NCBI GenBank assembly: GCA_938004065.1
Contig: CALKWM010000013.1
Coordinates: 2,457 to 66,456 of the forward strand
Reading direction: 5' to 3'
DNA length: 64,000 bases
Source: an uncultured bacterium
Lineage (GTDB): Bacteria > Patescibacteriota > JAHJAL01
Position 1 is the stretch's first letter; each line of letters begins with the position of its first letter. The notes beneath the pieces are model-generated. The model was not told the DNA's origin. It saw only the letters and a program-made list of their open reading frames with translations, and made no database searches. Below are positions 38,334-61,611 of the stretch, piece after piece. Made by a program: the position numbers and the translations under genes.

Positions 38334-41300
38334 TTAGAAGCCAATATGGACAGCATCTTCGCAGTTTGTTAGAAAAGGGTTTTGTCGGTCTTCGCATTTT
38401 TTGACAAAGATATTCAATACATCAAATCGATCTTCATACCAAACAAAATCGAATTTTTCTTTGGATTTGGGGGCGATTTTATCTTGGATAGTGGAGGCGA
38501 AATCGGAAAATATCTGTAGTGGGTAGTAATTTTTGATATATTCCCTAGGATTGTTCGTCATTTCCGGGTTGTTGATCGGGAATCCGTTTTCGTCAGCTGC
38601 TTCAACAATTTCTCCATTTTCGTTTTCCATGATGATATTGTATTTTAGGTGAGCTGTTTTATTGCGATCAAATGTTAAAACCATGTCCAGGAAGTGGATG
38701 ATGTTGTCTTGGGCGATTTTTTTCTTGCATTTGGTAAACACAAAGCCGGCAACGGGGTTATTGACCCAACTGCCAACGAAGCCAATGCCGATATTGGCTA
38801 CATTGAATCCGAGACCCATGTCAAAACTGGCCCCCAGATTTGTTAGTATTGATACATCTGCCTTCAGGAATTCTTTGATTAGATATTGGCTAGCAAACTG
38901 CATGATGGCTTCAGTTGGAAATTCACCATTTAGAATGCTCATGATAGAATTACTCATCAAACCACCCAGGGGACCATCAAGTTTGGAAAGCAGGTGTTTA
39001 TCTAAAAATTTCATCGACGTTTGTTTGATAAATCCGTCAATGTCGCCGTTCATCAGATTTTGGATACCGCCAATATCGAAATAATCGCCAAGTTCGCTTG
39101 ATTCAAGCCATTCGGTTATTTTGTCAGCGACTTTGGGTGAGGATAGGATGGAGTTGGCGATAGCTTGGGGATCGCCGCTAAGGGCGGCGTTGACGATACC
39201 GCCATAATCGCTCATGAAGCTTTGGAATTCTTCTTTGCCGATAGCATCTTGGAAAAAGTTGGCGGTCATGATGGTGCTAACCGCTTTTTGGGGGGTGATA
39301 TCGCCACTGGCGACGAGCCCATAGATACTGGAAATATCACCGAGTGTGCCGGGATCGATGTCTTGCAGTACGTTTTTTTGAATAAAATCCGATTGCAATA
39401 ATTTGGGAATATTTTTTGGGTCAGGTGGTACTCCGAGGGTGTTGGTAAGCTCCTGAACTACGGCTAGTTTTTCCAAGCCCGATTCGGATGTTATCTTGTT
39501 GGCCATGATTTCCATAACTGTGTCGGATGCTTTTTGAGGTGAAAAGTTTTGAACCAAATCTAGTAGTTGCTCCGGTCCGGTACCGATGGCGTCTCTGATT
39601 TCGTTGTTGATGTTAAATTTATCTTGAATGAGAGGAATATCTTCCAGGAGAGCAAAATAGTTGCCACTTTCGATGTCGGAATAGATTTTTAATGGATCAA
39701 CCCCATTGATAGCGATATTGCCATCCGGTCCGATGTTCCAGGTGGAATTATTTGAAAGATTATCAAAAACTCCGTTGTCTTTCAAAAAGCCGGTCATGGA
39801 TTTGATGCCAGTTTCGATGTCGCCGGTTTGCCATGATTTGACGATACCCATGGCGTTAGTCAGTTGAGTTAATTTGTTTTCCAATATTGCCTGGTCGCTA
39901 ACATCGGTAAACATACTGGCGATGTCAATGCCGGTCATACTGGCGGCGATAACTGTAACACCGAGGTTGGATAGATTTTCTTTGGCTTGATTGTCGCTTT
40001 TGCCGATACTATTTAAAGTGTTATAGATTGTTCCACTGCCTCCTAAAAAGGCGTTGTTGTCAAAGGTGGCATAAGTTGAGTCAGGAAGTTGGTAGCTGAA
40101 TTGATGTTTTTCGAGGAATGCGGTTTTTAGCGGGTCTTGGGAGAGAATGTTTTGAATTTGAGAGAAGCCGGAAGTGGTATTGGGTAGAGTCGGAGTGATG
40201 CGATTGTAAATATTTGATGGAAGATTTTGATTTATACCCGGAATTTGTTGGTTGTTGGAAGTAATCGGAGTGATAACAATTGGTTTTTCTTGGGCGTATT
40301 TGATGATATTGGTGGTGGTGCTAAGTAATTTGAAATTACCAGTTTGACTATGATAGTTGTTGTTGCCGCGGATTCCCGGGAGGGCGATTTCGGCGAGATC
40401 TACTTTGGGATAAGCGTAGTAAATCTCTCCGGGTTCAAAGTATTCGGAGTAAGTAGCGTTGATGGGGGATGGAAATGAAGTGCCACCGTAAGAGCTAAAA
40501 TAATCAGGATTTGTAGTGTTTTGGTCAGGAGAAAGTAGAGCGTTGTTTTTTTGTTCAAAGGTGGTAGAGTGGACAATTTCCAGTGAGTTTAAATCAACGT
40601 TCAAGGAACGTAGTACTCCTTGAAATTGAGTATCTGATGCGCCATTTTGGCCGGGTTTGGTGGTGGTATCAATGTAATCAATTTGTGATAACTCATCTTT
40701 TTTTACTCTTTCGGAAAAGGAAATTTTGATTGGCGCTACCAGATAACTGATTTCATTTTTGGCTTTGGCCGAGTCGCTGTTGGGATCGGAGATGGATTGG
40801 TCAATGGTGGATACTATGCGGTCATGAAACTGAGTGATGGGTTCGGAATTACCAAATTTTGTGGAATAATCTTGAGAAAGTTTTTGTAGTTCGGGGGAAT
40901 ATGCGTATGGATTGTAACCATAGCCATATGGTGAATAGTTGTTGAATGCGGGATTGGTGGATTCCGGTAAGTTATTGACAATTTGAATGTAGTCTTGCAG
41001 GTAGGCCAGTTTTTCAATGTCGGTTTTATTTAAATCGATGCCAAATTTATCCAGTTTGATGGAATTGGAAATGGCGGCCATCATGAGTTGCCCAGCTTGA
41101 GCGTTGTCGCCCGAGTAGGCCGGATTGAGACCGTAGTCAACCAGTAATTCCAGAGACTCGGGGGTGAAGTTGATGTTTTTTAAAGCGGCTTGCTCAAAAT
41201 CGATTTTGTTAAGCAGAGTGTTTTTGAAAGTAACAAATGGCATTGAGGTGGGGTTGTCAACGAAGTCTTTGATGAATTGCGCGTCTTCAGTATTGATAGC

Positions 41301-44012
41301 GAATATTTTTGACAAATCCTCGGTTTCCATGAGTTGCATGGCGGAGTTTAGCGAGAAGTCTTGGCCTTGTGAAATTGCGGTGGTTAACGCTTGATTGATG
41401 CGTTGATTGTCAGTTACGTCAGACAATAGACTGCTGGTTAAAGACATGGCGGTGTTTTTGGGGTTTTTGATATCAAAGATGAAATTTGTCGGCAGGCCTT
41501 CAATTTTGGCCAAGCCATGTTGTCCCAATTTATTGGCGATGCCGATAAACCCTTCACCGGAAAAACTATCCAAATCAAGGATCCCGTCCGGCCATCCCAA
41601 TACATTTGAATTCAGTTCTTTTAGGCCCAAATTGGCGAAAGCCAGCCCCATGGCTTCGGGGTTGTCGCCATTTTGGATAGCGATGTTCATGGCTTCCTGC
41701 AGTTTGGGAGGTAGGTTGAGATTGGGGGTAAAATTTAAAGCTGATAGGGCGGCGTCTTTGAAATCACCGGACATCATAGCGGAGATGATGGGTGTGAAAG
41801 AGCCAAATTCCAGTCCAAGTTGCTCGTCGAGGTAGTTGCCGGTAATGGATGTGATTAGTGCTTCGGGGTTGGGATTTAACCAATTGACGCTAGAAGAAAA
41901 ACCATCGGGTAGTCCCAGTTTGCCAAATACTTTTTCATCAAGCCACTGGTTGCCCATTTCGCTCATGAAGTTTTCAAATCCACCTTGGGCCAGTTTGGCG
42001 ACATCGAAATTTTTAAAACCGGAATTAAATAACTGTTCGATGGCTCCTTGGGCAAGACCTTTGAGCATATTGGTAATACTGAAACCATTTTCCGGATCAA
42101 ATGGTAGCGCTTGGTCGAGAGCGGCACCGGCCAGATCGGAGGCGATTGAACCGTAGTCTTCGTTTTGCCATTTGACTTTCACTCCCATGGTATTGGGATT
42201 GGCGGAGTCGAGTATGGGAGGACAACATGGTTGGCAAAGAGTTCCCCAGAAGATAGGTGCGGTGCAAAGGAGCATGCATATCGCTGAATTGCGATAGATA
42301 TTCCAAAAAGGAACATTGTTTTCGGTAGCGGCACCGAGACTGTATTGAGATGCGGCCATGGGACCGGCAACTGTCATCAGGTAGGCGCTAATTAATGAAT
42401 CTACAACAGCGGTGATGGATTTGCAAGAGACTATATCGCCACAGGCGGAACAGTCAGTGGATTCGTTGTATAATCCGATTTCGGAGATATCAACCGCTTT
42501 GAGGTCATAGTGAGGATTGACAACTTCCAATTCGTCTTCACCTATTTCATCGGAAGCGTATGGTGCGTTTAAACCCAGCCAGATTTTGAGGTGGGCTCGG
42601 TCTTTGTAGGGAACACCGAGATTGTCAATGTTGCCGGTCATGACATCAAAAACAAAATAAGTGGCACTGACTATTCCGCAGAGGTTGGCGGGGTTATCAC
42701 ATTTTTCCGGACTGTTTTCGATGTTTTTGCCACAGGCGGTTTTGATGGCCCCCGGGGTAGTGGCGTCTTGGATGACTTTGTCAGCTAGGTACCTTTCGTA
42801 AGTTTCGCCGTTCATTTCCATAGTTTGGAAGACGTGGTAAAGCAGGTAGTAGATTCTTTCGTCAACCTGAATGCCTTGTTTGTAGTAGCTGTTGAATTCG
42901 GCGATGGTTTGGGGCAACAATACTTTTACTTCCGCCGGGTTTTCAAATTCAAGTGGGGGTGGAAAAAATTCTTGGGTAGGCGGGTTGCCACTTTTTGGTT
43001 CAGGAATGTTATTGATTTCATTTTGAAGTTGTTGAAATTCCGGGCTGTTGGTATCCGGATTTTCAAAATATGGAGCTATTGAATCGTTGTTGATCGTTTG
43101 AGGATTGTTTTCGGGAGGATTTAGTTCGGGCGCGGGTGGAGTGCTGAGAGAGGCATAGGTTTTGGTTATGCCCAGATATTGGGCGAGTTTATTGTTGCCA
43201 TTGGTCGAAGTGGTAGATGGTTCGGTAGTAAAATTGTTTTGCAAAATTTGTCGTGAAGTATCGGTATTGAAAGCGATATTTATGTCGGGGTTATCAACTC
43301 GAGCGTCGTTGTTTTGCTGGGGATCTGAACCTTTGAGAGCGTTGGGGCCGGGAGGGCAGGCGATTAGTCCTTCGCCGATAGCTTTGGAAATAAATTCTTT
43401 GTGGGAAAGCATATCACCATTTATTTCGGCGCCAATTTCGGCTTTGATCATTAGGCATTCGAATACTTGGTTGAAATTGAAAAGCTCGGCCAGATTTTGT
43501 GATTGCTCCAAATAGTGGTCGTAGATATGTTGAGCCCAGGCGTCTTCATTGCTATTGTAATCATTTTTACTGAGATTTTTGATCTCATCAACTTTGGCTT
43601 TGGCTTTGGTAAAAATTTCGTTATTTAAATCGATAACTCTTTGAGTTTCGATCAAGGTATCAACTTTTTCGATTTCATCGTAAACGACAGTATTTAAGTT
43701 TTCTTCCAAAGTTTGGATTTCTTTGGCCCAGTCGCGGAATTTGTCGGTAATGTTGGGAGTTTCGATTTCGTCTTGGATGATATCCAGACTGTTGATGATG
43801 GTGTCGTTGGCAGAGAATTGATCGATAGTAGTGTTCTGATTGATTTCTTCCAAAAAAGGGTTAAGGTTAGGATCAATGTCATGGGAATTTGGTACCGGCG
43901 GGGTTGCGTGAACCGGTGTAAATTTCAGTTGGGGATTGGCATATGGCGAAATGGCGGCGATGAAGCAGACGAGAATCAGTTTGATGATGATTTTTTTGTT
44001 GATTGGATTCAT
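38334..44012 (-). CDS. Giant secreted/surface protein of 1892 aa with a signal peptide, Pro/Asn-rich low-complexity stretches and Cys-rich regions; function unknown.
   Basis: Uninterrupted 5.7-kb ORF. The N-terminus MNPINKKIIIKLILVCFIAAISPYA is signal-like. No catalytic motif was recognised. Confidence 0.6.
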   Translation of the reverse strand: MNPINKKIIIKLILVCFIAAISPYANPQLKFTPVHATPPVPNSHDIDPNLNPFLEEINQNTTIDQFSANDTIINSLDIIQDEIETPNITDKFRDWAKEIQTLEENLNTVVYDEIEKVDTLIETQRVIDLNNEIFTKAKAKVDEIKNLSKNDYNSNEDAWAQHIYDHYLEQSQNLAELFNFNQVFECLMIKAEIGAEINGDMLSHKEFISKAIGEGLIACPPGPNALKGSDPQQNNDARVDNPDINIAFNTDTSRQILQNNFTTEPSTTSTNGNNKLAQYLGITKTYASLSTPPAPELNPPENNPQTINNDSIAPYFENPDTNSPEFQQLQNEINNIPEPKSGNPPTQEFFPPPLEFENPAEVKVLLPQTIAEFNSYYKQGIQVDERIYYLLYHVFQTMEMNGETYERYLADKVIQDATTPGAIKTACGKNIENSPEKCDNPANLCGIVSATYFVFDVMTGNIDNLGVPYKDRAHLKIWLGLNAPYASDEIGEDELEVVNPHYDLKAVDISEIGLYNESTDCSACGDIVSCKSITAVVDSLISAYLMTVAGPMAASQYSLGAATENNVPFWNIYRNSAICMLLCTAPIFWGTLCQPCCPPILDSANPNTMGVKVKWQNEDYGSIASDLAGAALDQALPFDPENGFSITNMLKGLAQGAIEQLFNSGFKNFDVAKLAQGGFENFMSEMGNQWLDEKVFGKLGLPDGFSSSVNWLNPNPEALITSITGNYLDEQLGLEFGSFTPIISAMMSGDFKDAALSALNFTPNLNLPPKLQEAMNIAIQNGDNPEAMGLAFANLGLKELNSNVLGWPDGILDLDSFSGEGFIGIANKLGQHGLAKIEGLPTNFIFDIKNPKNTAMSLTSSLLSDVTDNQRINQALTTAISQGQDFSLNSAMQLMETEDLSKIFAINTEDAQFIKDFVDNPTSMPFVTFKNTLLNKIDFEQAALKNINFTPESLELLVDYGLNPAYSGDNAQAGQLMMAAISNSIKLDKFGIDLNKTDIEKLAYLQDYIQIVNNLPESTNPAFNNYSPYGYGYNPYAYSPELQKLSQDYSTKFGNSEPITQFHDRIVSTIDQSISDPNSDSAKAKNEISYLVAPIKISFSERVKKDELSQIDYIDTTTKPGQNGASDTQFQGVLRSLNVDLNSLEIVHSTTFEQKNNALLSPDQNTTNPDYFSSYGGTSFPSPINATYSEYFEPGEIYYAYPKVDLAEIALPGIRGNNNYHSQTGNFKLLSTTTNIIKYAQEKPIVITPITSNNQQIPGINQNLPSNIYNRITPTLPNTTSGFSQIQNILSQDPLKTAFLEKHQFSYQLPDSTYATFDNNAFLGGSGTIYNTLNSIGKSDNQAKENLSNLGVTVIAASMTGIDIASMFTDVSDQAILENKLTQLTNAMGIVKSWQTGDIETGIKSMTGFLKDNGVFDNLSNNSTWNIGPDGNIAINGVDPLKIYSDIESGNYFALLEDIPLIQDKFNINNEIRDAIGTGPEQLLDLVQNFSPQKASDTVMEIMANKITSESGLEKLAVVQELTNTLGVPPDPKNIPKLLQSDFIQKNVLQDIDPGTLGDISSIYGLVASGDITPQKAVSTIMTANFFQDAIGKEEFQSFMSDYGGIVNAALSGDPQAIANSILSSPKVADKITEWLESSELGDYFDIGGIQNLMNGDIDGFIKQTSMKFLDKHLLSKLDGPLGGLMSNSIMSILNGEFPTEAIMQFASQYLIKEFLKADVSILTNLGASFDMGLGFNVANIGIGFVGSWVNNPVAGFVFTKCKKKIAQDNIIHFLDMVLTFDRNKTAHLKYNIIMENENGEIVEAADENGFPINNPEMTNNPREYIKNYYPLQIFSDFASTIQDKIAPKSKEKFDFVWYEDRFDVLNIFVKKCEDRQNPFLTNCEDAVHIGF

Positions 44013-44015
44013 ATA

Positions 44016-44471
44016 TCAAGCATTGGTTTGTTCGATTAATGTTTTTTGATTGGTTTCGGGCAAGGAAGCGTACCAGTCAATTTGAATGTCGGAGATGAGA
44101 GTGCCTTTGGTTACAATCCAATTTAAGATTTCGTTTTTGGTTTCGGCGTATTGAGTATCGAGGTTTAAGTCGGTGGGGTTTTTGGCAGTCAGATAGATGT
44201 CGATTTTGGAGATGGACTGGCCACTAGGAAAAATAGAGTATTCGAAGTATTCATTGTCGGCAAAATACGGCAGGTCTTTTTGGATTGAGTATTGGGGGTA
44301 CTCGGTGTCGATAATTTGGTTGAATGTGATTTGACTGTTGGCAAAATAATTGTCCGGCAAGATATATAGTTGCTCGACTTTTGTTTGTTGTCGATAGATA
44401 AAAACGATGATAATTGCGATAGGGATGGCAATGGCTAAATATTTAATGATTTTTTGTTTTAATATTGGCAT
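44016..44471 (-). CDS. Small N-terminally membrane-anchored protein.
   Basis: 151 aa with a TM segment YLAIAIPIAIIIVFIY followed by a soluble domain. The gene is tightly packed between its neighbours. Confidence 0.4.
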   Translation of the reverse strand: MPILKQKIIKYLAIAIPIAIIIVFIYRQQTKVEQLYILPDNYFANSQITFNQIIDTEYPQYSIQKDLPYFADNEYFEYSIFPSGQSISKIDIYLTAKNPTDLNLDTQYAETKNEILNWIVTKGTLISDIQIDWYASLPETNQKTLIEQTNA

Positions 44472-44476: not shown

Positions 44477-45877
44477 TTATTTTTTATTGGCGTAATATAA
44501 TATTGTGTTGGAATAACCTCTATTAGCGTCACCAAACTCGGCTAGTTCCAAATCGGACCAGGAGATTTTGGTACGATTGCGATTGCCCGGATCGTTGAGG
44601 ATTACTCCTTCTTGATCATACCCGACGGCAACGACAAAATGGCTGGGACCACCGGATGACAAATTGGGACCGCCACCAAGGACTACCGGTATTCCTTTGT
44701 CCAAATAAGTGGTAATGGTCTTTTGTTGTTGACTGAAATCAAAAACGAATTGATTTTCTTCAACGATAATATCCGGGTATTCGCTGTGGATGTTTTGGGC
44801 AGTAACTGTGATACCGGTTAAACTGCATACAGATGTTGGGTCAACGTCTTTGCCCATAAATTTTAGTACCATAGCAAGAGAGGTGCAGTAACAGCCGGCT
44901 TTTTGGATATCGGCACTGTAATCACCTTGATTAAAATACCACTCACGCGGTTTGTCCAGTGATTTGGCACCGGAGGGTGTGTCGTATGTTGGTGTTACTG
45001 CTTCGGCTTGGGTGGAAATATCGGTTGGGTAGTGTTTGTTGCCACTGCCCATGCCACCCATAGCTAGAAAAAGGACAACAATTAGAAAAATTATGATGAC
45101 GATAATGATGATGATCAAAATAACTACTACTACCGGCCAACCAACCGCGGCAGCGCCTCCGGCGGCAGCGGCAGTTCCACCAGCGGCAGCGGCAGCTCCG
45201 CCCGCTGCAGCGGCACCTCCACCAGCGGCGGCCACGGTTCCACCGGCAGCAGCTGTACCGGCACCGGCTGCTCCCGCTCCCGCGGCTCCGGCACCGGCTC
45301 CGGTTGCACCAGCAGTGCCAGCACCAGTTGCTCCCGTGCCTGCTCCGGCACCGGCTGACGGACCACCCGGTGGCATTTTGCCGGTAGGTGTTTTTGGGGA
45401 TTGCGTGCCCGGCTGACCGGGTTTTTGACCGGAACCGGGTTTGTCCGGTTGCTTGTTTTTGTCGGCATCTTCGCGATTAATCTTGCGGTTTTTGTCCGGT
45501 TGGGATTTGTCCTGGTCGGTGTCTTGTTTGTCTTTATCTTTGTCCTGTTTTTTGTCTTTATCCTTGTCTTGATCTTTTTCTTTGTCCTTGTCTTTATCCT
45601 GATCCTGATCTTTATCTTTATCTTTATCCTTTTCTTTTTCTTTGTCTTGATCCTGATCTTTTTCTTTGTCAGGTTCCTGGTCGGGTTTTTTTTCCGGAGA
45701 TGGTTGTTCCGGACTACTGGTACTTTGTGGTGAAGTGTCGGGTTGGCGGTCAAGATTGATTGATTGCGGTTCTGATCCACCGGCTGATGACGATTGTCCG
45801 CCACCTGGTGTGGAGGTACCGGATATATTTATCTCAATGTCTTTTTTTTCGATATCTTCGCGTTTGAATTTGGCCAT
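44477..45877 (-). CDS. Membrane-anchored papain-like cysteine peptidase (Peptidase_C39-like domain) with a disordered KD-repeat and Gly/Ala/Thr-rich N-terminal region.
   Basis: The N-terminus contains (KDKD/QDKD) repeats, then a GAGAGTGATGAG stretch, then a single TM VVVILIIIIIVIIIFLIVVLFLA. The C-terminal domain carries a catalytic-Cys motif AGCYCTSLAMVL and a His motif PSHFVVAVGYD. Confidence 0.6.
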   Translation of the reverse strand: MAKFKREDIEKKDIEINISGTSTPGGGQSSSAGGSEPQSINLDRQPDTSPQSTSSPEQPSPEKKPDQEPDKEKDQDQDKEKEKDKDKDKDQDQDKDKDKEKDQDKDKDKKQDKDKDKQDTDQDKSQPDKNRKINREDADKNKQPDKPGSGQKPGQPGTQSPKTPTGKMPPGGPSAGAGAGTGATGAGTAGATGAGAGAAGAGAAGAGTAAAGGTVAAAGGGAAAAGGAAAAAGGTAAAAGGAAAVGWPVVVVILIIIIIVIIIFLIVVLFLAMGGMGSGNKHYPTDISTQAEAVTPTYDTPSGAKSLDKPREWYFNQGDYSADIQKAGCYCTSLAMVLKFMGKDVDPTSVCSLTGITVTAQNIHSEYPDIIVEENQFVFDFSQQQKTITTYLDKGIPVVLGGGPNLSSGGPSHFVVAVGYDQEGVILNDPGNRNRTKISWSDLELAEFGDANRGYSNTILYYANKK

Positions 45878-46076: not shown

Positions 46077-46961
46077 ATGAACAGATTGGTTTGGATAATG
46101 ATGATAATGTGGTTATTGTGTAGTATAGCGAATGCCGAGATGATTACAAATCTGGTAGGAATTGTGGACAAAGATTTGTATTTTCTGAAGCTTGATTACA
46201 AAAATTTCGTGATTGATTTTAATCATAAAATTTTAATGCAAGAGCCAATGCTGAAGGTGGAATTTTCTACTAAAAGGAATGGAGAGGTGCTGGTATTTTT
46301 TGGTTCTGATGGTAAGTGCAATAAAGTATGTTTATATAGTAATAGTGGTGAAGAATTGAAGGAGGTGAGTAATGATTGTGATACTTTGTTTGTGAGAGAC
46401 ATGATTTCGGATGGGAATTATGTTATTGGTAGTAATGCCAATATGGGGCAAGTGATTAAAAACAATAAAATAATTTGTGAGCTTGGCAGAGCAAATTATT
46501 TCGGAATAAATGGTGATTGGGTATATTATGCCAGAAGTACTGATAGAGGAACTGCTTTTCCCATGTATAAATTGAATTTGATTTCCCGAGAAAAAATAAA
46601 ATTAGCTGATAAACTTTATGTGTTCGGTGGGTTGGAAATATTTAACCCATTCGAAATATATTATGAAAATTGTTATGGCGAGGGTGGAAATGTGGTAAAC
46701 CGGATGTGGGCTGAAAATGGTGTATATAGAGAAGAGCGTTTGATTGATGGGTATTTGATAAGACATATCGAAGGATTTAACAAGGAATATGTTTTTACTT
46801 TCGGAAATATAGTGCACAAAGATGATTGGAAGGACGATTGGATATGCGGAGGGGTGCCAAAATTATTTAGATTGAGTGATAATAAAATAATTGAATGTGA
46901 GAGTAATGTGGATGAAATAGAAAATATGGGTGATAAAATTTTCAATTTTGATTTGTTATAA
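46077..46961 (+). CDS. Secreted hypothetical protein (signal peptide; DUF5050/propeller-like repeats).
   Basis: Signal peptide MNRLVWIMMIMWLLCSIANA and a GDWVYYARSTDRG...YKLNL motif. Paralogous in style to the next gene and shares its leader. Confidence 0.5.
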   Translation: MNRLVWIMMIMWLLCSIANAEMITNLVGIVDKDLYFLKLDYKNFVIDFNHKILMQEPMLKVEFSTKRNGEVLVFFGSDGKCNKVCLYSNSGEELKEVSNDCDTLFVRDMISDGNYVIGSNANMGQVIKNNKIICELGRANYFGINGDWVYYARSTDRGTAFPMYKLNLISREKIKLADKLYVFGGLEIFNPFEIYYENCYGEGGNVVNRMWAENGVYREERLIDGYLIRHIEGFNKEYVFTFGNIVHKDDWKDDWICGGVPKLFRLSDNKIIECESNVDEIENMGDKIFNFDLL

Positions 46962-46977
46962 AATAAAAATTGATGGA

Positions 46978-47011
46978 AGATCACTAAATACGAATTTAGG
47001 ATCTTTTTTTT
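46978..47011 (+). terminator. Rho-independent terminator of the 46077 gene.
   Basis: AGATCACTAAAT-acga-ATTTAGGATCT imperfect hairpin followed by a T8 run. Confidence 0.55.
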
Positions 47012-47033
47012 CGTCAAAAAGATAGTTTAGGTT

Positions 47034-47135
47034 TAATGTCTAGATAATTTCTGGTTAATATTTTATTAATAATAATTTGGATATGGTGAGAGGGTGAATG
47101 AAAATGTGATGAGGGGGTGAAATTTAAAAAAAATG
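47034..47135 (+). promoter_or_regulatory. Conserved ~100-nt leader, copy B, upstream of the 47170 gene.
   Basis: ATAATTTCTGGTTAATATTTTATTAATAATAATTTGGATATGGTGAGAGGGTGAATG...GGGGGTGAAATTTAAAAAAAATGTTAAGAAAAT, nearly identical to copy A. Confidence 0.5.
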
Positions 47136-47169
47136 TTAAGAAAATACTTGTGAAAGGAAGTGGAGCGAA

Positions 47170-48237
47170 TTGAAAAAATTAGTTTTTTTGTTGCTAATGG
47201 TAGTTTTTTGCAGTCAAATGGTGTTAGCCGGGGACAAGGTGATTTTTATTAGATCTTCGTCAATGTTGGAAAGTCAGATAATAATTGTTGATCTGTCAGA
47301 ACAAAGTTCTCAGATATATGCAGATGGTTTTAGCAAATTTAGTTATGGTATTTCTTATGATGGTGATTGTTATGTATTGAGCCGGGATGGTAAATTGTTC
47401 TGGTATGGATTTGATGGGATGGAAAAGCAATTAACCTTTAATGCCGTGCCTTGCGAAAGCACCGGTTCGGATGCAGGTCTGTCATTAACCAGTGAGGCCA
47501 ATATAATGCCGGTTTTGAATGCCGGAGGAAAAAAGCTTGTTTTTTTGAAGACCAAATTGATTTCAAGGCCGTTAATTTATGGTGCTGTGTGTTACATGTC
47601 CGACATAAATTCGTCCTCAGTTAGTTTGCGTACCGGGGGATATACTACGCCGGTATGGTTAAATGATGGTTGTATTCTGGCGGCCAAGGTGGAACATTAT
47701 AACAAGGCGGAGTATCATTGTGAGGAGATTTATAGTGTGCCGAGGTTATTGTATTTGGATGGCCGAGATGATGTGAAAATTGCCAATGAAGAAGTGATGG
47801 CCAAGGGGCGAATATTGACAAAATTTTCATCCGAGTCTTCAAATGGAAAACAATTCTTTTTTAAAAAAGAACGATATGTTCGTATAAATGATAATGAATG
47901 GGATGAAAAATATCAGATAGTATTGATGAATGCCGGGGATCTATCTTTTGTAAAAGAATTTACAGGGGCGACTGATGGGGCGTGGTGTGGTGATAAGTTG
48001 ATTCTGGTCAACAAAGACGGGCGCGGAGACAATGTGGGAGTATATAACAGCAAGGGAGAGGTGATTAAAAAACATCGTTTTGGTCATTGCGGGGTACATG
48101 AAGAGATTTATGATATTGTGGGTGTAAATGGGAACAAGATATACATCCATGATGGTGGGGATCATATGTATGTTTTTGATGTGGAAAAAGGGAAAGAAGA
48201 AGTGATTAACCTCTATGGGTATTATATGGGGAGGTAA
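47170..48237 (+). CDS. Secreted hypothetical protein (signal peptide); apparent TTG start.
   Basis: Signal peptide MKKLVFLLLMVVFCSQMVLA. SD-like GGAAGTGGAG upstream. 355 aa. Confidence 0.5.
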   Translation: MKKLVFLLLMVVFCSQMVLAGDKVIFIRSSSMLESQIIIVDLSEQSSQIYADGFSKFSYGISYDGDCYVLSRDGKLFWYGFDGMEKQLTFNAVPCESTGSDAGLSLTSEANIMPVLNAGGKKLVFLKTKLISRPLIYGAVCYMSDINSSSVSLRTGGYTTPVWLNDGCILAAKVEHYNKAEYHCEEIYSVPRLLYLDGRDDVKIANEEVMAKGRILTKFSSESSNGKQFFFKKERYVRINDNEWDEKYQIVLMNAGDLSFVKEFTGATDGAWCGDKLILVNKDGRGDNVGVYNSKGEVIKKHRFGHCGVHEEIYDIVGVNGNKIYIHDGGDHMYVFDVEKGKEEVINLYGYYMGR

Positions 48238-48315: not shown

Positions 48316-49863
48316 TTAGTGATCTTTTTTTAGTGTATATAAGTAGTTTTCCATATCAGTGAAGTAGAGGGTAAATGATGATGGGTCGAAAGCTAGAGAA
48401 TCAATACTGTTTGCACCTTGTTGCTTTTGATCGAAATTGGTGGAGAATATTGTATCATTTTGAATGCTATCTGATTTGCGTGATGTATCAAAATAATAAA
48501 ATTGGTCGGTACTGTTGGGATAATCGCCTGGTGTAATTGTAGGGAGATATGTTGGGATAGCTAAGATAAATTCTGTATTAGATATCCAAGTTAGTTTTTT
48601 GATAAATGATTTGATCAAAAGTGGTCTGAAATATATATCATTGTTGTCATTTTTTCGAATAAACTCAATTGAAGGCAATCCTTTGTTATCTATTATTTCG
48701 GCGAGTAGTGTTTCATTATCAGGAGACCAGCTAATATCTGTAATGGTTCTGATTGCTGGAATTTCTTCAATCAAGTTGTTTTCAAAATGAAAAATAAATG
48801 CAGTATGATCTTGCGAAATAATCGCAAGTTTGGTGTTGTCGGTTGTAATTTTTATTTCTGGATTAAGAATTTTTGATGGTAGCTTATAAATATTTTGCCA
48901 TTGACTGCCATCGGGATTGGCTATCGTTAAACTATTGTGGTTTTCTCCTTCTGTGTAAACAGGAGCCCATCCTCTGCCACCACTAGGCATATCTGGATCG
49001 GGAATTGATTTTTCATCGATTGTTTGGTTTTGGAATATATAATATATTTTTTCAGAGTCTTTTGACCAGGCAATTTTGTCTGAAGGAATTGTTGAGTTAA
49101 TTATTTTTTGGGTAACTATGTCGAGGTAATATTTTTTTTCTAAAGTTTCATCGTTTTCGGTGCCGTTAAAGATAACTTTATTAAAATTTGGCGACCATAA
49201 AATATCTTTGATATTTTTGAATTCATTTGTTTCAAAAATTATTGTTTCTTGGTTGTTTTCAATTTTTTTGAATTGAAATTTATTTGAAAATGAACTATTT
49301 GCTTCGTCGAAGATGGTAATCTGTTCGATATAATGGGGTGTATTATTTATAGAATTATTTTGTAGCCCAATAACAATATTTTGGGTTTTTTCTTTGATTG
49401 AAGGAATTAGGTTGGCATCTATATTGGTAGTTTGCCAGAAATAAACAATGAAATCCTTTTGAAAATCAAGGTAGTTTTCTTTTTTAATTACTAAACTATA
49501 GTTGCCTGGTGGTAAAGATAAAAAGGTGCTTTGAGTTTGACTATAAAATTCAATTTTTGAATCTAAAAATGGACAATTAGAATAACCTTCTTGGTGAACA
49601 ATATCTGCGGTATTGCATATATAAGCTTTGGTTGATGACTGGTTGGAATGAATTAATAATTTTCCTTTATTTATTAAAGGCCAAGTAATTAATATTCCAA
49701 TAACTAGAATAATAATTCCTGCAGAAATATAAAGATAATTTTTCTTGAAAAATTCGATAATATTGGATTTTTTTTCTTTAGTATTAGAAGAGATATTGTC
49801 TGGTTGTAGGTTTAGTTTTTTCATTATTTTTATAAATGGATTAGCATTTGTAATAGAGGACAA
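48316..49863 (-). CDS. N-terminally membrane-anchored PD40/TolB-like beta-propeller protein.
   Basis: TM segment YISAGIIILVIGILITWPL, then repeated WSP(N/D)..K..F motifs (ILWSPNFNKVIF, ISWSPDNETLLA, KIAWSKDSEKIYY). Confidence 0.5.
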   Translation of the reverse strand: MSSITNANPFIKIMKKLNLQPDNISSNTKEKKSNIIEFFKKNYLYISAGIIILVIGILITWPLINKGKLLIHSNQSSTKAYICNTADIVHQEGYSNCPFLDSKIEFYSQTQSTFLSLPPGNYSLVIKKENYLDFQKDFIVYFWQTTNIDANLIPSIKEKTQNIVIGLQNNSINNTPHYIEQITIFDEANSSFSNKFQFKKIENNQETIIFETNEFKNIKDILWSPNFNKVIFNGTENDETLEKKYYLDIVTQKIINSTIPSDKIAWSKDSEKIYYIFQNQTIDEKSIPDPDMPSGGRGWAPVYTEGENHNSLTIANPDGSQWQNIYKLPSKILNPEIKITTDNTKLAIISQDHTAFIFHFENNLIEEIPAIRTITDISWSPDNETLLAEIIDNKGLPSIEFIRKNDNNDIYFRPLLIKSFIKKLTWISNTEFILAIPTYLPTITPGDYPNSTDQFYYFDTSRKSDSIQNDTIFSTNFDQKQQGANSIDSLAFDPSSFTLYFTDMENYLYTLKKDH

Positions 49864-52800
49864 AATCCGACCATCCTTCTCCTTCCTCCCAGTTTGCTTT
49901 TTTGGTTATGCTATTTATGGTAGGATCAAAAAATTTATCGATGGGTGTAGGTTCATTCGGTCCGTTGTAACCTAGTTGTTGATAACAACCCGAGTTATTA
50001 ATTATTAGATTTTTTACCCCGTCTATTTCTTGGTAACTTTTGATCGTGACATAATGACCGGAAAAACCGCCAATACCAATATTATAATAATAGTATGTAC
50101 CAACTACTACTGGTATGCCTTGTTTGGCAAGGTTAATTATTTCCTGTTTGGTGGCACCTCGATGAATACAGCTTTGTTTGTCTTGTGGGATGTGTTTTTT
50201 CATTTGTTTTTCAAGATAATCCATGTTGGTAGATTGCGATAGTGGTCTGACGCATTTTGATGAATCATTACAAGTGTAGTCATCATAAAATGATCTTTCT
50301 CCGAAACTAGTGGCAAAACCTTGTGATTGCAATAACATAAGCAAGGCAGTAGGTCCGCAACCATCATCAGTGGTTTGACAGTAGTGAGGCATTTCTCCTG
50401 GTGTAACTACAGTAGGTGTAGTGCTGGGTGTGCTACATTGTTCGGAAGTAGTTTGTAAATAGGGGTATGGGTCTTGGAAATCGGGTAAATCTATACTACA
50501 TCCATCTGGATTTGCATTTAAAGGTCGCTCAAAGTGCATCATACAACATGGACCAATATCGTCTACTGTTGCTATTTGTTGTCCGGCTCTTATTTTTGTG
50601 CCTTGAGTGATGAAAGGTTCAGTGTTTACTTCACCATAACCGTTAAATGAACCATCGGCGTCGTTTTTAACCATAATGTAGTCTTTGCCACAATAGAAAT
50701 TTTCTTTTACATATTCTACTGTTCCGGATTCAATAGCTATTACTGGCCAACTAGCACCGGTTTGACCGCAATTGTTAGGTCCAGGACCAGCTTCTCCAAC
50801 AATAAGATCAAAACCTGCGTGTGCTCTAGAGACAGGACAATCGCCTTGAGGCCGAGATGCTTTGAAGTGTCTTGGTCCATTTGGAGCTCCTTTGTTTCCG
50901 TACTCGAGAGTAGCTTCTTTGCCATCGGCGCCAATAATTGGCCAGCATCTGCCACCGGGAGGAACATCGGAAATTGTTTGCGTTTGTTCTTGACATTTTT
51001 TAATACAGTCATCAATTTCTTGTTGGGTGTATCCCGGAAAAGATCCACCATTATTACCAGTTGAGCCGGTTGTGCCACCTTGGCCACCGCAGATTTCGGA
51101 GTCGGAACCAATAATATTGAATTGTTTTTTGGCGGTAATAACTCGATTGTATGATTCTTCAATCCTATTTTTTAGTGCTTCATTTTCTCTGGCTTTGTTA
51201 GCGATGTTAGTTATTACTTCGTTTATAGTTCCGGATGTTGCAGAAACAAGCATAATGATATCATTTCCGGCATTGATAGCTTTTTCGACTCTATCTGTGG
51301 TGGAATCGTTGGTTGATAGTGATGCGCCAACAGCGTTCAAGTCGTCGGTGATTATCAGTCCGTTAAAACCATTTCGGGCTTTGTCAACAATTTCTTTGGT
51401 ATAGGCAGCGTTTTCGGAAGAAATTTTGGTATAGGTAATACTATTCATCATGATAGCTACTTTATTTCCATATTTTTGTTTTAAATCATCGAATGGTTTT
51501 ATATATTGATAAGGATCTTCACTAGATGTGCCTTTTTCATAATCGGTGTGAGCACTTGCCGGATAGCCAGGAAAATGTTTAAGTGTGGGAATAACACTAG
51601 CGAGAATCAAGCCATCAATGTAATTTGATGCTTCAGTAGTAATATCACCATCAAAAGTACGACCGTCAGCACTAATTGGACTGTCGCTTAGGTTTGGGTC
51701 TACTACTGGTGCAAGATTCATATTGATACCGAAAGATTTCATATCCTTACCGCATGATGTCATAGATGTTTTTGGATCAGACATATTGGCGGCTGATGGC
51801 AAGTTGGAGCAATTGTTTGCGGTGCTGGTATATTTAAGTCTGTTGACTACTCCACCTTCGATGTCGCTGGCGATAATTGGTTTTATTTTCAATGTGTTGG
51901 TAATTGTTTTTATTTTAGCAAGACTATTATCTTCACTGCCTCCCATCATTATGATACTACCAATTTTCAGTTTTTCTAATTCATCAGTAGTAAAATTGGC
52001 TTCGTTGACCATAAGTATTTGGCCAATTTTTTCTTCCAAGCTTAGTTCTTTACATTTCTGGCTGGATCCTTCGATGTAAAATAGTTTCCCTGGATCTTGT
52101 GAGTGGACGATATTGGTCATATATTTGGTAAAATCAGTAATTTCATATTTAGCCATTTCACCACTTGAGCCGTTATTTTTTACACCAGTATATACAGTAC
52201 CGTGATCTTCGTAGGGATCGTTGACAATAAAGGAAGTAATTTGACCAGAGGAATCTTTGGTATAACCGATAATTAGAACTATGTGGCCGTAATTGCCATC
52301 GGTATTTGATGTGCGCATGAATCCGGTAAATGCGACCATGGGAGTACCTTGGTCAATCAGGCCGGTTATTTTAGGAATGCTATTGGTGTCATATTTGAAT
52401 TCCGTTACAGTTGATCCTGTTTCGGTTGTAGCAAAACTTTGAATAGTACCTGATCCATTTCTTGTAGCGTCTTTACCGTTTAATGTTTTGTTTTGTTCAA
52501 TAGTACTCCAGACCGGTTCGATGGTGGTGTAGTAGGTGCCGGGGTCAATATCTGTACTATTGGCATAATTGACAGCCATAACTGTTGAAACGAATCCGCA
52601 ACCGGCACTTTCAATGGTGTCGACACTGTCTAGTTTGACATTGGGATATTGTTTTTGATTATAATGTTTGATTCCGGAAATATAAGTTTTGTCGTCATTA
52701 GATGTGGGACCGGAGGAGATGTCTTGGCATTGCATGTTTTCAAAAATTGCTTTTGCATAATTAACTCTTTTGGTAAATGGTGTTAGGTCGTCTGAGCATT

Positions 52801-53485
52801 CAAAAAGATCGTGAAAAGTACCAACCAAATCTTCAATTTTTGTATATTCTGGAAAAAAACTATACAAGCTTTTATATCCTTCTTCATAATATTTTTCCCC
52901 ATAAATGCTTTCTCTTGGGATAAGATAGACATTGCATAAAGCAGGTCCGGTGAATTCTTTCCAAAAAAATTCAAGTTGAGCTTGAAGGCTGTCGATAGGT
53001 TGATTGGTTGATTCGCAATAAGAAGATAAGGCATCGTGTCTGCTTCCATACCATTGGGCCAATCCGTATGCTCCGCTATCTGGGTTGAGAGCTGTAGGAG
53101 AAAATTGGGATTCCTGTTGGAAATTACCTGCTATTGCTGCAGCTTGAGTTTTGTTGAGTCCTTTGGATGTAAGAAAACTTATAACAGTGTTGATGTTTTT
53201 TCTTTGGGATTCGTCAATTGAATTACCTGTATAGGTGCAGGGGCCGGTAGATGAACCTCTAGGTCCGTATGTTTCTAGCAAACAATCCTCAACGCATTTT
53301 CGATCGGTGGGCGAAAGTAAACTATCCGGAGTCAAGCCGGTCATGCCTAACATGGCCATCATGAGAGGTAGTAGAAACATTAATATACCGCAACAGCAAA
53401 GGGTGCAGCAAATATAGAGTATATAGCGCAAGGGGTCGTCCTGGAGATTTGTTTCGTCAGGGATTTGTGGGGTTGGCTCGGACAT
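49841..53485 (-). CDS. Giant membrane-anchored multidomain peptidoglycan hydrolase, in the position of a T4SS VirB1/PrgK/CwlT-type lysin.
   Basis: The start was set at MSEPTPQ (53485) rather than the track start 53533. From N- to C-terminus:
- TM segment RYILYICCTLCCCGILMFLLPLMMAML.
- Phage-tail-lysozyme-like motif AAIAGNFQQESQFSPTA...GAYGLAQW.
- C39-like domain 1 (AGCGFVSTVM...YGHIVLIIGY...NDPYEDH).
- GH3/NagZ-like domain (LEEKIGQILMV...ASDIEGG...KHFPGY...AHTD, GLIITDDLNAVGA).
- M23/LytM-like domain (AHAGFDLIV...QQIATVDDIG...MMHFE).
- C39-like domain 2 (GCGPTALLMLLQSQG...GHYVTIKSY). Confidence 0.7.
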   Translation of the reverse strand: MSEPTPQIPDETNLQDDPLRYILYICCTLCCCGILMFLLPLMMAMLGMTGLTPDSLLSPTDRKCVEDCLLETYGPRGSSTGPCTYTGNSIDESQRKNINTVISFLTSKGLNKTQAAAIAGNFQQESQFSPTALNPDSGAYGLAQWYGSRHDALSSYCESTNQPIDSLQAQLEFFWKEFTGPALCNVYLIPRESIYGEKYYEEGYKSLYSFFPEYTKIEDLVGTFHDLFECSDDLTPFTKRVNYAKAIFENMQCQDISSGPTSNDDKTYISGIKHYNQKQYPNVKLDSVDTIESAGCGFVSTVMAVNYANSTDIDPGTYYTTIEPVWSTIEQNKTLNGKDATRNGSGTIQSFATTETGSTVTEFKYDTNSIPKITGLIDQGTPMVAFTGFMRTSNTDGNYGHIVLIIGYTKDSSGQITSFIVNDPYEDHGTVYTGVKNNGSSGEMAKYEITDFTKYMTNIVHSQDPGKLFYIEGSSQKCKELSLEEKIGQILMVNEANFTTDELEKLKIGSIIMMGGSEDNSLAKIKTITNTLKIKPIIASDIEGGVVNRLKYTSTANNCSNLPSAANMSDPKTSMTSCGKDMKSFGINMNLAPVVDPNLSDSPISADGRTFDGDITTEASNYIDGLILASVIPTLKHFPGYPASAHTDYEKGTSSEDPYQYIKPFDDLKQKYGNKVAIMMNSITYTKISSENAAYTKEIVDKARNGFNGLIITDDLNAVGASLSTNDSTTDRVEKAINAGNDIIMLVSATSGTINEVITNIANKARENEALKNRIEESYNRVITAKKQFNIIGSDSEICGGQGGTTGSTGNNGGSFPGYTQQEIDDCIKKCQEQTQTISDVPPGGRCWPIIGADGKEATLEYGNKGAPNGPRHFKASRPQGDCPVSRAHAGFDLIVGEAGPGPNNCGQTGASWPVIAIESGTVEYVKENFYCGKDYIMVKNDADGSFNGYGEVNTEPFITQGTKIRAGQQIATVDDIGPCCMMHFERPLNANPDGCSIDLPDFQDPYPYLQTTSEQCSTPSTTPTVVTPGEMPHYCQTTDDGCGPTALLMLLQSQGFATSFGERSFYDDYTCNDSSKCVRPLSQSTNMDYLEKQMKKHIPQDKQSCIHRGATKQEIINLAKQGIPVVVGTYYYYNIGIGGFSGHYVTIKSYQEIDGVKNLIINNSGCYQQLGYNGPNEPTPIDKFFDPTINSITKKANWEEGEGWSDFVLYYKC

Positions 53486-53514
53486 GGTAAGAAATAAGAA
53501 GTAAGAAATAAGAA

Positions 53515-53593
53515 GTATGCGCCCAAGGCGCACCAGATGACTGGAAAAGTAATAAGTATGCGCCCAAGGCGCACCAGATGACTGGAAAAGTAA
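53515..53593 (+). promoter_or_regulatory. Two tandem copies of the 38-bp double-dyad element (53515-53552 and 53556-53593), 29 nt upstream of the lysin ATG, preceded by AAATAAG/AAGTAAG repeats.
   Basis: GTATGCGCCCAAGGCGCACCAGATGACTGGAAAAGTAA x2, separated by TAA. Confidence 0.6.
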
Positions 53594-55751: not shown

Positions 55752-55800
55752 GGGTGGAAAGAATTAATATCTAATGTGAATAATAATTTGTGAAAATAAA

Positions 55801-55838
55801 CAAAGTATCAAGTAACAAGTATCAAGTAACAAGTATTT
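55801..55838. repeat. (CAAGTAT CAAGTAA)x2-3 heptamer array just 5' of the VirB4-like gene.
   Basis: CAAAGTATCAAGTAACAAGTATCAAGTAACAAGTATTT. Confidence 0.8.
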
Positions 55839-55869
55839 TGAGTCCCTCGACTTACGCTCGGGACGATAT

Positions 55870-56562
55870 TTATTCACTCGTTCCGGAGATGACGTCAGAG
55901 GTTAGGGATTCGATTTTGAAAAGTTTTTGATGGCGGGAGGTGGTGGGATTGAAGTGGTTGTACATCAATTCGGTGATTTCCTGGGTGGATAGGGTAACGG
56001 CACTAAGTCCCATCGATCCCAATCCGTTGGTGATAACGTTGATGCGCTCGGAGATTTTTTCTTTGGCCAGTTGAAAATCTTTTTCTTTGACGATAATTTC
56101 GTTGGATGATGGAAAAAGTTTTTGCCAAAACCCCTTGGTGGGAGCGGATGGGGGATAATAGGAAACTACCAGGAAGAATTTTTTTTCCATGACATTGGTA
56201 ACTTCCAGCAGACGCTGGATAAAGGCGATGTATTCTTGCATTTGAATTTTCAAGAGATCGTTTTGCTGTTTGATTTCCAAATCTTTGAGTTTGGAGATGT
56301 AGTCGGTTAAATCCAGTTTTTTGGATTGGACTATTATCTGAACCGGAAATGCCAGTGAATTTAGAAAGTTTTGGTATTGGTAGATGATGGCGTTTTGTTC
56401 GTCATCGGATTTGAGATCGAAGTTGACACTGGAGGTTAGCAGGATGCTACGCAGACTGCCGTCTTTCATGATGACCAGACCGTCACGGATTTCTTTGAAT
56501 GGGATATAGTTTTGGGTGGAGTTGCGGGGGTTGTGGGATTTTTTTTTGGTTTTTTTCTTCAT
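55870..56562 (-). CDS. Hypothetical T4SS-associated protein of 230 aa, between the VirB3-like and VirB4-like genes.
   Basis: Basic N-terminus with no TM. The IPFKEIRDGLVIMKDGSLRSIL segment loosely resembles VirB4 N-terminal regions. The gene is tightly linked, with 118 nt to the VirB4-like start. Confidence 0.4.
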   Translation of the reverse strand: MKKKTKKKSHNPRNSTQNYIPFKEIRDGLVIMKDGSLRSILLTSSVNFDLKSDDEQNAIIYQYQNFLNSLAFPVQIIVQSKKLDLTDYISKLKDLEIKQQNDLLKIQMQEYIAFIQRLLEVTNVMEKKFFLVVSYYPPSAPTKGFWQKLFPSSNEIIVKEKDFQLAKEKISERINVITNGLGSMGLSAVTLSTQEITELMYNHFNPTTSRHQKLFKIESLTSDVISGTSE

Positions 56563-60366: not shown

Positions 60367-60390
60367 TTACTTTTTTAGATAAAAAGAAAA

Positions 60391-60756: not shown

Positions 60757-60766
60757 TTTTTTCTCC

Positions 60767-61095: not shown

Positions 61096-61120
61096 AAAGT
61101 ATTAATATTATTGCATGTTG

Positions 61121-61429: not shown

Positions 61430-61611
61430 AATAGATGGTAAAAAAAAGTATCAAAGATAAATAAGCAAGAAATAAGAATCAAGAAGAAAGAAGCAAGAAT
61501 CTGGTAAAAACAATAATTTTAAAAAAGAAGAATTTACAAAGAAAAATTAGTTGAATATTGCATATTGCGTATTGATTATTGCATATTGTATATTGCATAT
61601 TGCATATTTTG
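61430..61611. repeat. SSR spacer between pilin paralogs 3 and 4.
   Basis: AAATAAGCAAGAAATAAGAATCAAGAAGAAAGAAGCAAGAA, then TATTGCATATTGCGTATTGATTATTGCATATTGTATATTGCATATTGCATATT, which is the inverse orientation of the AATATGCAATA units. Confidence 0.8.

Follow-up and report, generated by a model that had tools for sequence, protein, structure and literature searches.

Conjugative type IV secretion systems (T4SSs) of Gram-positive bacteria include membrane-anchored peptidoglycan hydrolases, among which TraG of pIP501 is grouped with PrgK of pCF10. PrgK has an N-terminal domain inside the cell, a transmembrane (TM) segment at residues 254–274 and extracellular LytM, muramidase ('SLT') and CHAP domains (PMC11323569). 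The prgK gene lies after prgI and virB4 and before prgL; the bitopic PrgL binds PrgK and is thought to place it at the channel (PMC11323569). In Patescibacteria, the T4SS is essential for life on host bacteria (PMC10633639, PMC12102498). Lysozyme and peptidase homologues encoded downstream of virB4 are essential for epibiotic growth of Southlakia epibionticum, and a 2025 survey of Patescibacteria noted that VirB1 profiles rarely find a hydrolase near virB4 (PMC12102498). In the structure-based table of Wang et al., SEML1_0006 has lysozyme-like and 'Cysteine proteinases' domains. Here, we describe a gene in a 64,000-nt stretch of contig CALKWM010000013.1 (the whole stretch that was analysed, hereafter the window). 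The gene (44477–45877, minus strand, ATG start, stop codon at 44477–44479) encodes a 466-residue bitopic membrane protein, hereafter the target, and belongs to a monoderm-type T4SS cluster.

On balance, we lean towards reading the target as an accessory enzyme of this T4SS. From its sequence, and by analogy with PrgK, the protein would lie with its N-terminus inside and its C-terminus outside, be held at the machine and cut peptidoglycan peptides with its ectodomain. Like PrgK, the target has a poorly structured N-region of ~250 residues, one TM segment (residues 247–273) and a catalytic C-terminal part, in an orientation that is itself predicted. The gene is likewise downstream of prgI/virB4-type genes and precedes a gene for a small bitopic protein. 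Conversely, the target has a single C39-like PF13529 domain in place of LytM, muramidase and CHAP domains. It is also four genes from virB4, with a separate lysin in between, and its 151-residue neighbour has no detectable similarity to PrgL. Moreover, the window system is chromosomal, and neither a coupling protein nor a relaxase was detected among the scanned open reading frames (ORFs) of at least 120 amino acids. SEML1_0006 and SEML1_0007 of Southlakia epibionticum offer a second parallel, with a Patescibacteria T4SS cluster, a pilin array and hydrolases downstream of virB4. However, their closer counterpart is the 1230-residue lysin of the window (49841–53533) and not the target.

Anchored T4SS wall hydrolases and the PF13529 family are known already; hence, this is no new kind of system. 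The literature accessible to us does not describe a C39-only passenger on a PrgK-like anchor, an intracellular region of Lys-Asp (KD) repeats and poly-Gly/Ala/Thr that recurs with swapped passengers next to virB4, or a conserved trio with a giant protein. Similarly, the readable part of the Saccharibacteria T4SS literature has no small anchored C39-only protein with such an N-region. The target gene gives the Patescibacteria T4SS a defined component, namely a cysteine peptidase that is small, anchored and equipped with a clear predicted triad, and that is conserved in a trio.

The catalytic assignment concerns residues 314–466 (44480–44938; all target features are on the minus strand). An earlier, model-made description of this DNA, the first-pass annotation, had called this part a C39-like domain, and our searches bear this out. 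PF13529 (Peptidase_C39_2) matches residues 314–430 with 51.4 bits against a cut-off of 24 (E=2.3e-13), and covers positions 5–142 of the 143 in the profile. A profile of 34 aligned domains matches 3erv, a putative C39-like peptidase (4e-13), the pseudomurein endoisopeptidase and cell-wall lysin PeiR (9e-13), a C39-like type VI effector and, at 1e-10 to 1e-6, the C39 domains of ComA and PCAT1. We also checked whether the C-terminal domain might lack similarity to C39 or papain-type peptidases; this is not the case. The best profile and fold match is 3erv, a PF13529 protein of B. anthracis for which we found no published function. The Cys/His core is common to both, and the target differs by an additional 276-residue N-terminal disordered region and a TM anchor. 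PeiR (PeiR/PeiW, 8z4h) is an archaeal-virus enzyme acting on pseudomurein; it is 18% identical, lacks a membrane anchor, and its N-terminal, wall-binding region is a different one.

Relatives of the C-domain were obtained by an exhaustive HMMER search of 1.84 billion representatives, which gave 123 sequences, the best being 39% identical. A word-indexed homologue search with the TM segment and C-domain as query gave no match. A whole-protein pattern scan of genome contigs returned 587 pattern hits and zero true relatives, the patterns having fallen in low-complexity parts. Five C-domains were too divergent for patterns; hence, VirB4 was used as the anchor for locus retrieval. Hits of the full protein to NELF-E, TFIID and Red in the PDB were rejected as homology; these RD/KD-rich eukaryotic proteins match by composition. 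On the same grounds, we discounted matches to SdrC/SdrD and RNase E in NCBIfam.

The motifs AGCYCTSLAM and SHFVVAVGYD contain the conserved residues Cys329 and His413, respectively. Cys329 (codon tgt, 44891–44893), the predicted nucleophile, is present in at least 90% of the 34 aligned domains. In the AlphaFold2 model a helix begins at domain residue 52, so that the central helix starts with Cys329, and His413 is on the following strand. His413 (codon cat, 44639–44641), the predicted general base, is the sole fully invariant column of the alignment. The predicted third member of the triad is Asp429 (codon gat, 44591–44593), 16 residues past the His and part of an Asn428-Asp429-Pro430 motif; the Pro column of this motif (P154) is nearly invariant across the 34 domains. 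The NDP motif is invariant among the closest relatives, as is Gln317 (44927–44929; five closest relatives), the predicted oxyanion-hole residue. Gln317 lies 12 residues ahead of the Cys, the spacing of C39 peptidases such as ComA. Together, the profile matches and the model show the C-terminal part to be a predicted papain-fold C39-like cysteine peptidase with Gln317, Cys329, His413 and Asp429 as its key residues.

The resemblance to ComA and PCAT1 extends to the fold, the Gln/Cys/His/Asp arrangement and the His–Asp spacing of 16. It brings in a different function, that of a classical C39 leader peptidase trimming double-glycine leaders of secreted peptides or of T4SS pilins. We regard this as very improbable, even with ComA and PCAT1 as fold and profile neighbours and at least seven pilin genes in the cluster. 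The match to PF03412, the classical C39 family, is weak and at 21.7 bits falls below the cut-off of 22. In ComA and PCAT1, the GG-leader-cutting domain is cytoplasmic and precedes a 6-TM ABC exporter. By comparison, the target has a single TM segment, no ABC domains and no fused transporter, and its domain is C-terminal to the membrane segment and predicted to be outside. No GG-leader peptide gene was recognised nearby, in the course of an analysis that made no search aimed at small peptide genes. The first-pass annotation had named pilin leaders as possible substrates. This idea is unlikely because the two cluster pilins that we looked at (60391–60909 and 62772–63200) begin with Sec-type signal peptides that have A-x-A-like ends, for example ...GITFA/ET and ...TAYA/AE.

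Ahead of the ectodomain, the target has a long N-region of distinct segments. Residues 1–18 (MAKFKREDIEKKDIEINI, 45824–45877) form a conserved motif, with 16 of 18 residues identical in the orthologue P0001, and are a candidate docking motif. A disordered S/P/Q/G-rich segment follows (residues 19–61, 45695–45823); residues 1–61 are 56% identical to P0001, with indels. The KD/KE/QD dipeptide repeat, a polyampholyte, occupies residues 62–146 (45440–45694) and is 64% identical to P0001, with 4- and 3-residue indels. The best-conserved part of the whole protein is the Pro/Gly-rich motif at residues 147–171 (PGSGQKPGQPGTQSPKTPTGKMPPG, 45365–45439), with 88% identity to P0001. Neither the 18-mer nor this motif occurs a second time in the window. 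A 75-residue poly-(Gly/Ala/Thr) tract (residues 172–246, 45140–45364) leads into the TM helix, a putative signal anchor (residues 247–273, WPVVVVILIIIIIVIIIFLIVVLFLAM, 45059–45139). As had been proposed, the TM helix is single; we found one hydrophobic segment in the protein. The juxtamembrane linker (residues 274–313, 44939–45058) is modelled with low confidence; the first 30 residues of the modelled ectodomain have predicted local distance difference test scores of 45–63. P0001 is 54% identical to the target overall and 39% identical in the C39 domain.

The arrangement predicted from these features places the N-region of ~246 residues in the cytoplasm and the C-terminal part outside. This orientation is favoured because there is no signal peptide, the 246-residue N-region is highly charged, N-modules of this type are found with wall hydrolases elsewhere, and PrgK offers an analogy. 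The cytoplasmic, disordered residues would then comprise a conserved 18-residue tip, a KD polyampholyte, a Pro/Gly motif and an uncharged poly-Gly/Ala/Thr spacer. The single hydrophobic helix would anchor the protein and display the 190-residue C-terminal part outside. There, the ectodomain could cleave peptide stems or cross-links of peptidoglycan beside the secretion machine, in the cell's own wall or in that of a host bacterium, so making way for the T4SS channel or pilus. In doing so, the target may act with the five-domain lysin, much as PrgK, TraG and CwlT do in Gram-positive conjugation. The protein could be held at the machine through its N-region, through the small partner protein, or both. 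The weakest step in this scheme is that the N-region, via its two conserved short motifs, would tether or recruit the enzyme to the machine on its cytoplasmic face. The low-complexity tracts would be flexible spacers, with no constraint on their exact length and hence room for drift.

The genomic context is that of a T4SS. The cluster is entirely on the minus strand apart from two inserted plus-strand genes. It begins with a VirB2-like pilin array of at least seven genes (60022–63894), a TrbL/VirB6-like gene (57383–59821), a PrgI/VirB3-like gene (56701–57375) and a split virB4. The latter consists of a TraC-like N-part of 230 residues (55870–56562) and a P-loop ATPase part of 616 residues (53901–55751). 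There follow the lysin, a 515-residue membrane protein, the two plus-strand genes and the target, which starts 8 kb and four genes downstream of virB4, both being on the minus strand. Downstream of the target are genes for the 151-residue bitopic protein, a secreted protein of 1892 residues, a 226-residue protein and a PilB-type ATPase. Promoter-like sites were scarcer than in shuffled sequence in our promoter and terminator scan; hence, operon inference is limited to gene spacing of 3–5 nt.

The window is a chromosomal stretch and also contains housekeeping genes, namely recA, ftsK, polA, valS, glmS, femAB and those for RNase J, PNPase and a Mur ligase. The exact target protein is found on several public contigs, and orthologues occur in loci L002, L003, L005 and L089–L091. 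Synteny with L002 covers the full cluster including the target, and the two VirB4 parts are 95% and 88% identical. In one-genome-per-species data the nearest VirB4, with 85% identity, belongs to a metagenome-assembled genome (MAG) titled 'Patescibacteria group bacterium'. The other 79 virB4 loci mostly have Candidate Phyla Radiation (CPR) or Saccharibacteria titles, with a minority of other or non-specific MAG titles. Because of this nearest VirB4 and the CPR relatives, we place the window, on its sequence, in the Patescibacteria. With regard to virB4, the two halves are 118 nt apart (53901–56562), and the split is also found in L002, L004, L086 and L087.

Proteins with a similar N-region recur beside virB4. 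A full-length search returned 23 proteins with a long, usually net-acidic N-region, 58–92% Gly plus Ala over the 60 residues before a single TM segment, and then a C-domain. The GA-rich tract precedes the TM segment in all 23. Recognisable C-domains among them were C39_2, M23, glucosaminidase, Amidase_3 with NlpC/P60, Phage_lysozyme2 and CHAP. The five contexts that were fetched (six with the target) are all T4SS clusters, and in each of them no more than a few genes separate the gene from virB4. Three of these, L004 (C39_2), L087 (Amidase_3 and NlpC/P60) and L086 (CHAP), are Patescibacteria-type clusters adjoining dnaA. The other two, for P0133 (glucosaminidase) and L088 (Phage_lysozyme2), are plasmid-like and encode a VirD4-type coupling protein as well as VirB4. 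We also scanned 80 virB4-centred loci, extending up to 10 kb either side, for ORFs with at least 90 disordered residues and then a first TM segment. Ten ORFs matched; nine were on the virB4 strand, 0–4.2 kb downstream. Three of the ten have wall domains and lie beside virB4: Amidase_2 (L009), CHAP (L012) and M15_4 with NlpC/P60 (L020). Such an N-module with swapped catalytic passengers would be a simple signature for finding wall-remodelling or host-attacking enzymes.

A broader interpretation can be put on these layouts. The disordered acidic or KD region, poly-Gly/Ala tract and single TM segment might constitute an undescribed targeting or assembly module of monoderm T4SSs with interchangeable extracellular passengers. 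The passengers might then be C39-like, CHAP, NlpC/P60, amidase, M23, M15, glucosaminidase and lysozyme domains and, in one relative, a 1900-residue surface protein. Here, a unit of C39, small and giant proteins might control host attachment or wall breaching by an epibiotic CPR bacterium. We consider this interpretation as a whole speculative and distinctly unlikely. In that case the poly-GA tract would be mechanical and more than filler; it could be a slippery, uncharged spacer where the VirB4 ATPase lies, or it could self-associate in the manner of silk. When P0133 was searched against a plasmid database, only the glucosaminidase domain matched; the low-complexity filter hid the N-module, and no named family was found for it. 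In three Saccharimonadia loci (L036 11904–14471, L038 1852–4782 and L067 10571–13168), the gene right after virB4 encodes 100–170 near-pure Gly/Ala/Thr residues. Hydrophobic segments follow, and then a C-part of 600–650 residues with no Pfam match.

The neighbours of the target bear on its role. Directly downstream of virB4, the 1230-residue lysin (49841–53533, minus strand) has an N-terminal TM segment and five predicted catalytic modules: Phage_lysozyme2, C39_2, GH3 (NagZ-like), M23 and C39_2. The co-occurrence of PF13529 with lysozyme, GH3 and M23 domains in this protein supports a wall role. So does the count of PF13529 among the enzymatically active domains of phage lysins for Gram-positive hosts (PMC8223927), and among the viral fold matches to the model are proteins that bear the name lysozyme or endolysin. 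The first-pass annotation had counted three C39-like domains in about 9 kb, correctly so, given the target and two PF13529 stretches in the lysin. BLAST between the C39 domain of the target and those of the lysin gave nothing significant (best E 0.05); hence, they are not recent paralogues. The lysin counterpart in L002 is 30–36% identical and has lysozyme2, C39_2, Amidase_2 and C39_2 modules, while that in L006 has M23 and NlpC/P60.

On the other side of the target, 5 nt downstream, is the gene for the 151-residue bitopic partner (44016–44471, minus strand), with an N-terminal TM segment and an alpha/beta ectodomain of ~115 residues. The giant gene (38334–44012, minus strand) begins a further 3 nt downstream, and its 1892-residue product has an N-terminal hydrophobic segment that reads like a signal peptide in the translation. 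The giant gene follows the small gene in L001, L002, L003, L089, L090, L092 and L093. The trio is conserved in the window and L001, L002, L003 and L089–L090; L091–L093 are short contigs with a partial trio. In L003, the trio is kept even though the C39 domain is only about 30% identical. In L006, the closest species-level relative (VirB4 85%), the giant homologue (16028–21742) has no signal peptide; at its N-terminus, a disordered region rich in S/T/KD is followed by a GA-rich stretch and a TM segment.

Several observations weigh against a wall-cutting enzyme held at the T4SS. No C39 gene or 150-residue gene lies between the 496-residue gene and the giant gene of L006; as judged from these sequences, the trio and the L006 fusion connect the target with the giant protein more than with the wall. 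The large lysin is already present right after virB4, so the need for a second wall enzyme is not obvious. Pfam gives PF13529 alone in the target ectodomain, and none of the recognised wall domains of T4SS hydrolases (SLT/muramidase, CHAP, NlpC/P60, LytM) was found there; PF13529 is outside the set of domains by which the described classes of these hydrolases are defined. In the literature, we found no demonstrated peptidoglycan substrate for PF13529 members near the target. The N-region of PrgK is K/R-rich and has neither KD repeats nor poly-GA. Likeness of the N-module between families is one of composition and layout, and BLASTP of the target N-region against that of the L006 giant protein (E=0.12) does not support homology. 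The positive-inside rule is uninformative; the 15 residues before the TM segment are uncharged, and the 15 after it include one Lys, one His and one Asp. Lastly, in P0003 (L005 94–1218), of the closest C39 subfamily, Ser replaces the nucleophile Cys (…DKGSQATSVAM…) while His and NDP are kept. This variant may be a Ser-nucleophile or an inactive form.

The trio raises the main alternative, that the ectodomain and the small bitopic protein cleave, mature or release the giant protein, controlling host attachment instead of cutting the wall. Here the comparison is with LapG and LapA, where a cysteine protease gene is beside the gene for a giant surface protein. Conservation of the trio with 5-nt and 3-nt spacers, even in the lineage where C39 is about 30% identical, is consistent with this idea, as is the Rosetta-stone-type link in L006, which lacks the C39 and small genes and has a comparable N-module and TM segment fused to the giant protein. 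Many of the top C39_2 matches in the exhaustive protein search are domains within proteins of 3000–4000 residues, and C39-type and other clan-CA enzymes (ComA, PCAT1, streptopain, AvrRpt2) are classically proteases of proteins or peptides. However, the giant protein showed no recognisable cleavage motif, and the target has no Pfam or NCBIfam hit to the LapG/BTLCP family. There is no sequence relation to LapG and no LapD-like regulator, and the envelope is monoderm. The giant protein has its own signal-peptide-like segment and evolves more slowly than the C39 domain (70% and 39% identity to L002, respectively). Furthermore, the N-module bears unambiguous wall hydrolases beside virB4 in other genomes, and the L006 fusion may merely reflect a promiscuous anchor module. 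We hold control of the giant protein to be unlikely, and continue to lean towards the T4SS-associated wall enzyme.

Divergence between the window and L002 is expressed as nonsynonymous divergence (dN) only, with synonymous sites saturated (dS 1.3–4.5 or undefined) and no claim of positive selection. The cytoplasmic motors change little (dN 0.045 for VirB4 and 0.086 for PilB), and the giant protein has a dN of 0.22. Within the target, dN is 0.06 for residues 147–171, 0.22–0.39 for the rest of the N-region and 0.64 for the C39 domain, which is thus ~14-fold faster than VirB4. Values for the lysin (0.67) and the 515-residue protein (0.73) are similar. Compared with the cytoplasmic motor, divergence of the exposed enzymes of the cluster is faster by an order of magnitude. 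The N-region of the target, predicted to be cytoplasmic, keeps two short conserved motifs. This pattern fits an N-in/C-out arrangement with ectodomains that may face a variable partner, be it host wall, host defence or phage.

Fast divergence of the ectodomain (dN 0.64 compared with 0.045 for VirB4) is also what would be expected of arms-race proteins. The C39-like domain might instead be a contact-dependent toxin against the envelope of a host or competitor, released from its anchor or delivered by the T4SS, with the small membrane protein protecting the producer. There is a type VI effector, paired with an immunity protein, that has a C39-like domain (9jdd/9jg8), and the small gene immediately downstream is in the usual position for immunity. 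Moreover, Saccharibacteria cannot grow as epibionts without their T4SS, which may export proteins (PMC10633639). Set against this, the anchor is stable and hydrophobic, no recognisable processing or secretion signal was found, and the exposed proteins of the cluster all diverge equally fast. If the host wall were the target of the toxin, the two interpretations would overlap. We consider a toxin and immunity pair quite improbable, and keep to the wall enzyme as the preferred account.

The N-region is conspicuous at the DNA level. As the first-pass annotation had it, the KD repeat is also a repeat at the DNA level, here of GAYAAR-type hexamers; tandem arrays and pattern enrichment agree on this. 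Tandem Repeats Finder (TRF) reports a period-6 array of 23.5 copies at 45506–45670, plus 24-, 36- and 42-nt arrays. With at most one mismatch allowed, the pattern GAYAARGAYAAR is found 29 times in the window, where 6.1 +/- 2.4 would be expected, and none of 100 shuffles reached 29. Most hits (18/29) are within 45452–45670 on the minus strand. A second set of arrays, of 21 and 42 nt, is found by TRF at 45147–45253, within the Gly/Ala/Thr tract.

This tract coincides with a GC-rich island lying, as proposed, directly before the TM segment; a GC plot places it over residues 172–246, followed by the TM helix at 247–273. GC content in 200-nt windows is 0.70–0.72 at 45100–45400. The 300-nt window from 45141 reaches 0.72, the maximum of the 64 kb (mean 0.394, sd 0.060, next best elsewhere 0.563). 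By codon position, GC content in the island is 0.89 (first), 0.97 (second) and 0.40 (third). Elsewhere in the gene, third positions are at 0.36–0.48, and Gly, Ala and Thr are encoded with codon preferences like those in other genes of the window. Since third positions and codon choice are ordinary, amino-acid composition accounts for the island. In L002, the orthologue has an equivalent island (GC 0.72) despite saturated synonymous sites, and it is thus at the level of the protein that this composition is kept. The GC island is thus the DNA image of the Gly/Ala/Thr tract and a consequence of coding.

An extreme local GC content (0.72 compared with 0.39) could also signal an assembly artefact or a foreign insertion, with the repeats being non-coding. 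Spurious ORFs in other frames, at 45036–45416 (plus strand) and 45130–45804 (minus strand), might be taken to agree with this; they are by-products of low complexity. We checked for an artefact, which the first-pass annotation had raised, and found none. L001, an independent public contig, is 100% identical over 8541 nt, and the tract is kept in orthologues with saturated synonymous sites, such as that in L002. The frame runs unbroken from the conserved N-terminus into the C39 domain, third positions and codon choice are ordinary, and close strains show only in-frame indels. Contig identity, orthologue conservation, codon usage and the in-frame indels refute the artefact and insertion readings, which we consider next to impossible.

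The repeats had further been proposed as hot spots for length variation. For the Gly/Ala/Thr tract this holds among close relatives. In L089, L090 and L091, which represent one strain with a 99% identical protein, there are six substitutions and two in-frame indels relative to the window. The indels, a gain of 4 residues (AGAS) and a loss of 1 (A), are both inside the tract. The length of the KD repeat is unchanged among these close strains and varies only against the 54%-identical P0001, where indels occur in the S/P-rich part, the KD repeat and the Gly/Ala/Thr tract, with several also in the C39 domain. Repeat and island are ordinary low-complexity coding effects; their relevance is in-frame length drift, and they are traps for assembly and gene calling.

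Other features of the window were noted. Upstream of pilin genes are imperfect 7-nt (14-nt) repeat arrays at 60767–61057, 61428–61527, 61931–62084 and 62481–62747. The 7-nt units on the plus strand are CAAGAAG, CAATATC, CAATAAG and CAATATG. A 27-nt box, AAGAAAGTATCAAGGATCAATATCCAA, is present in nine copies in the pilin intergenic stretches. These intergenic repeats could be promoter, phase-variation or recombination elements of the array.

The two plus-strand genes that break the minus-strand cluster (46077–48237, between the gene for the 515-residue protein and the target) encode proteins of 294 and 355 residues. Both have signal-peptide-like N-termini, a GC content of ~0.33 and no Pfam match. 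The first has a 32%-identical homologue at the equivalent site of L002; the second has none in any fetched locus. Approximately 80% of window genes are on the minus strand. GC skew is positive on the plus strand over the window (1–64000; 0.06–0.48 in 2-kb windows), independent of gene orientation, and most coding strands are therefore C-rich. L002, which is in the opposite orientation, has the mirror-image skew.

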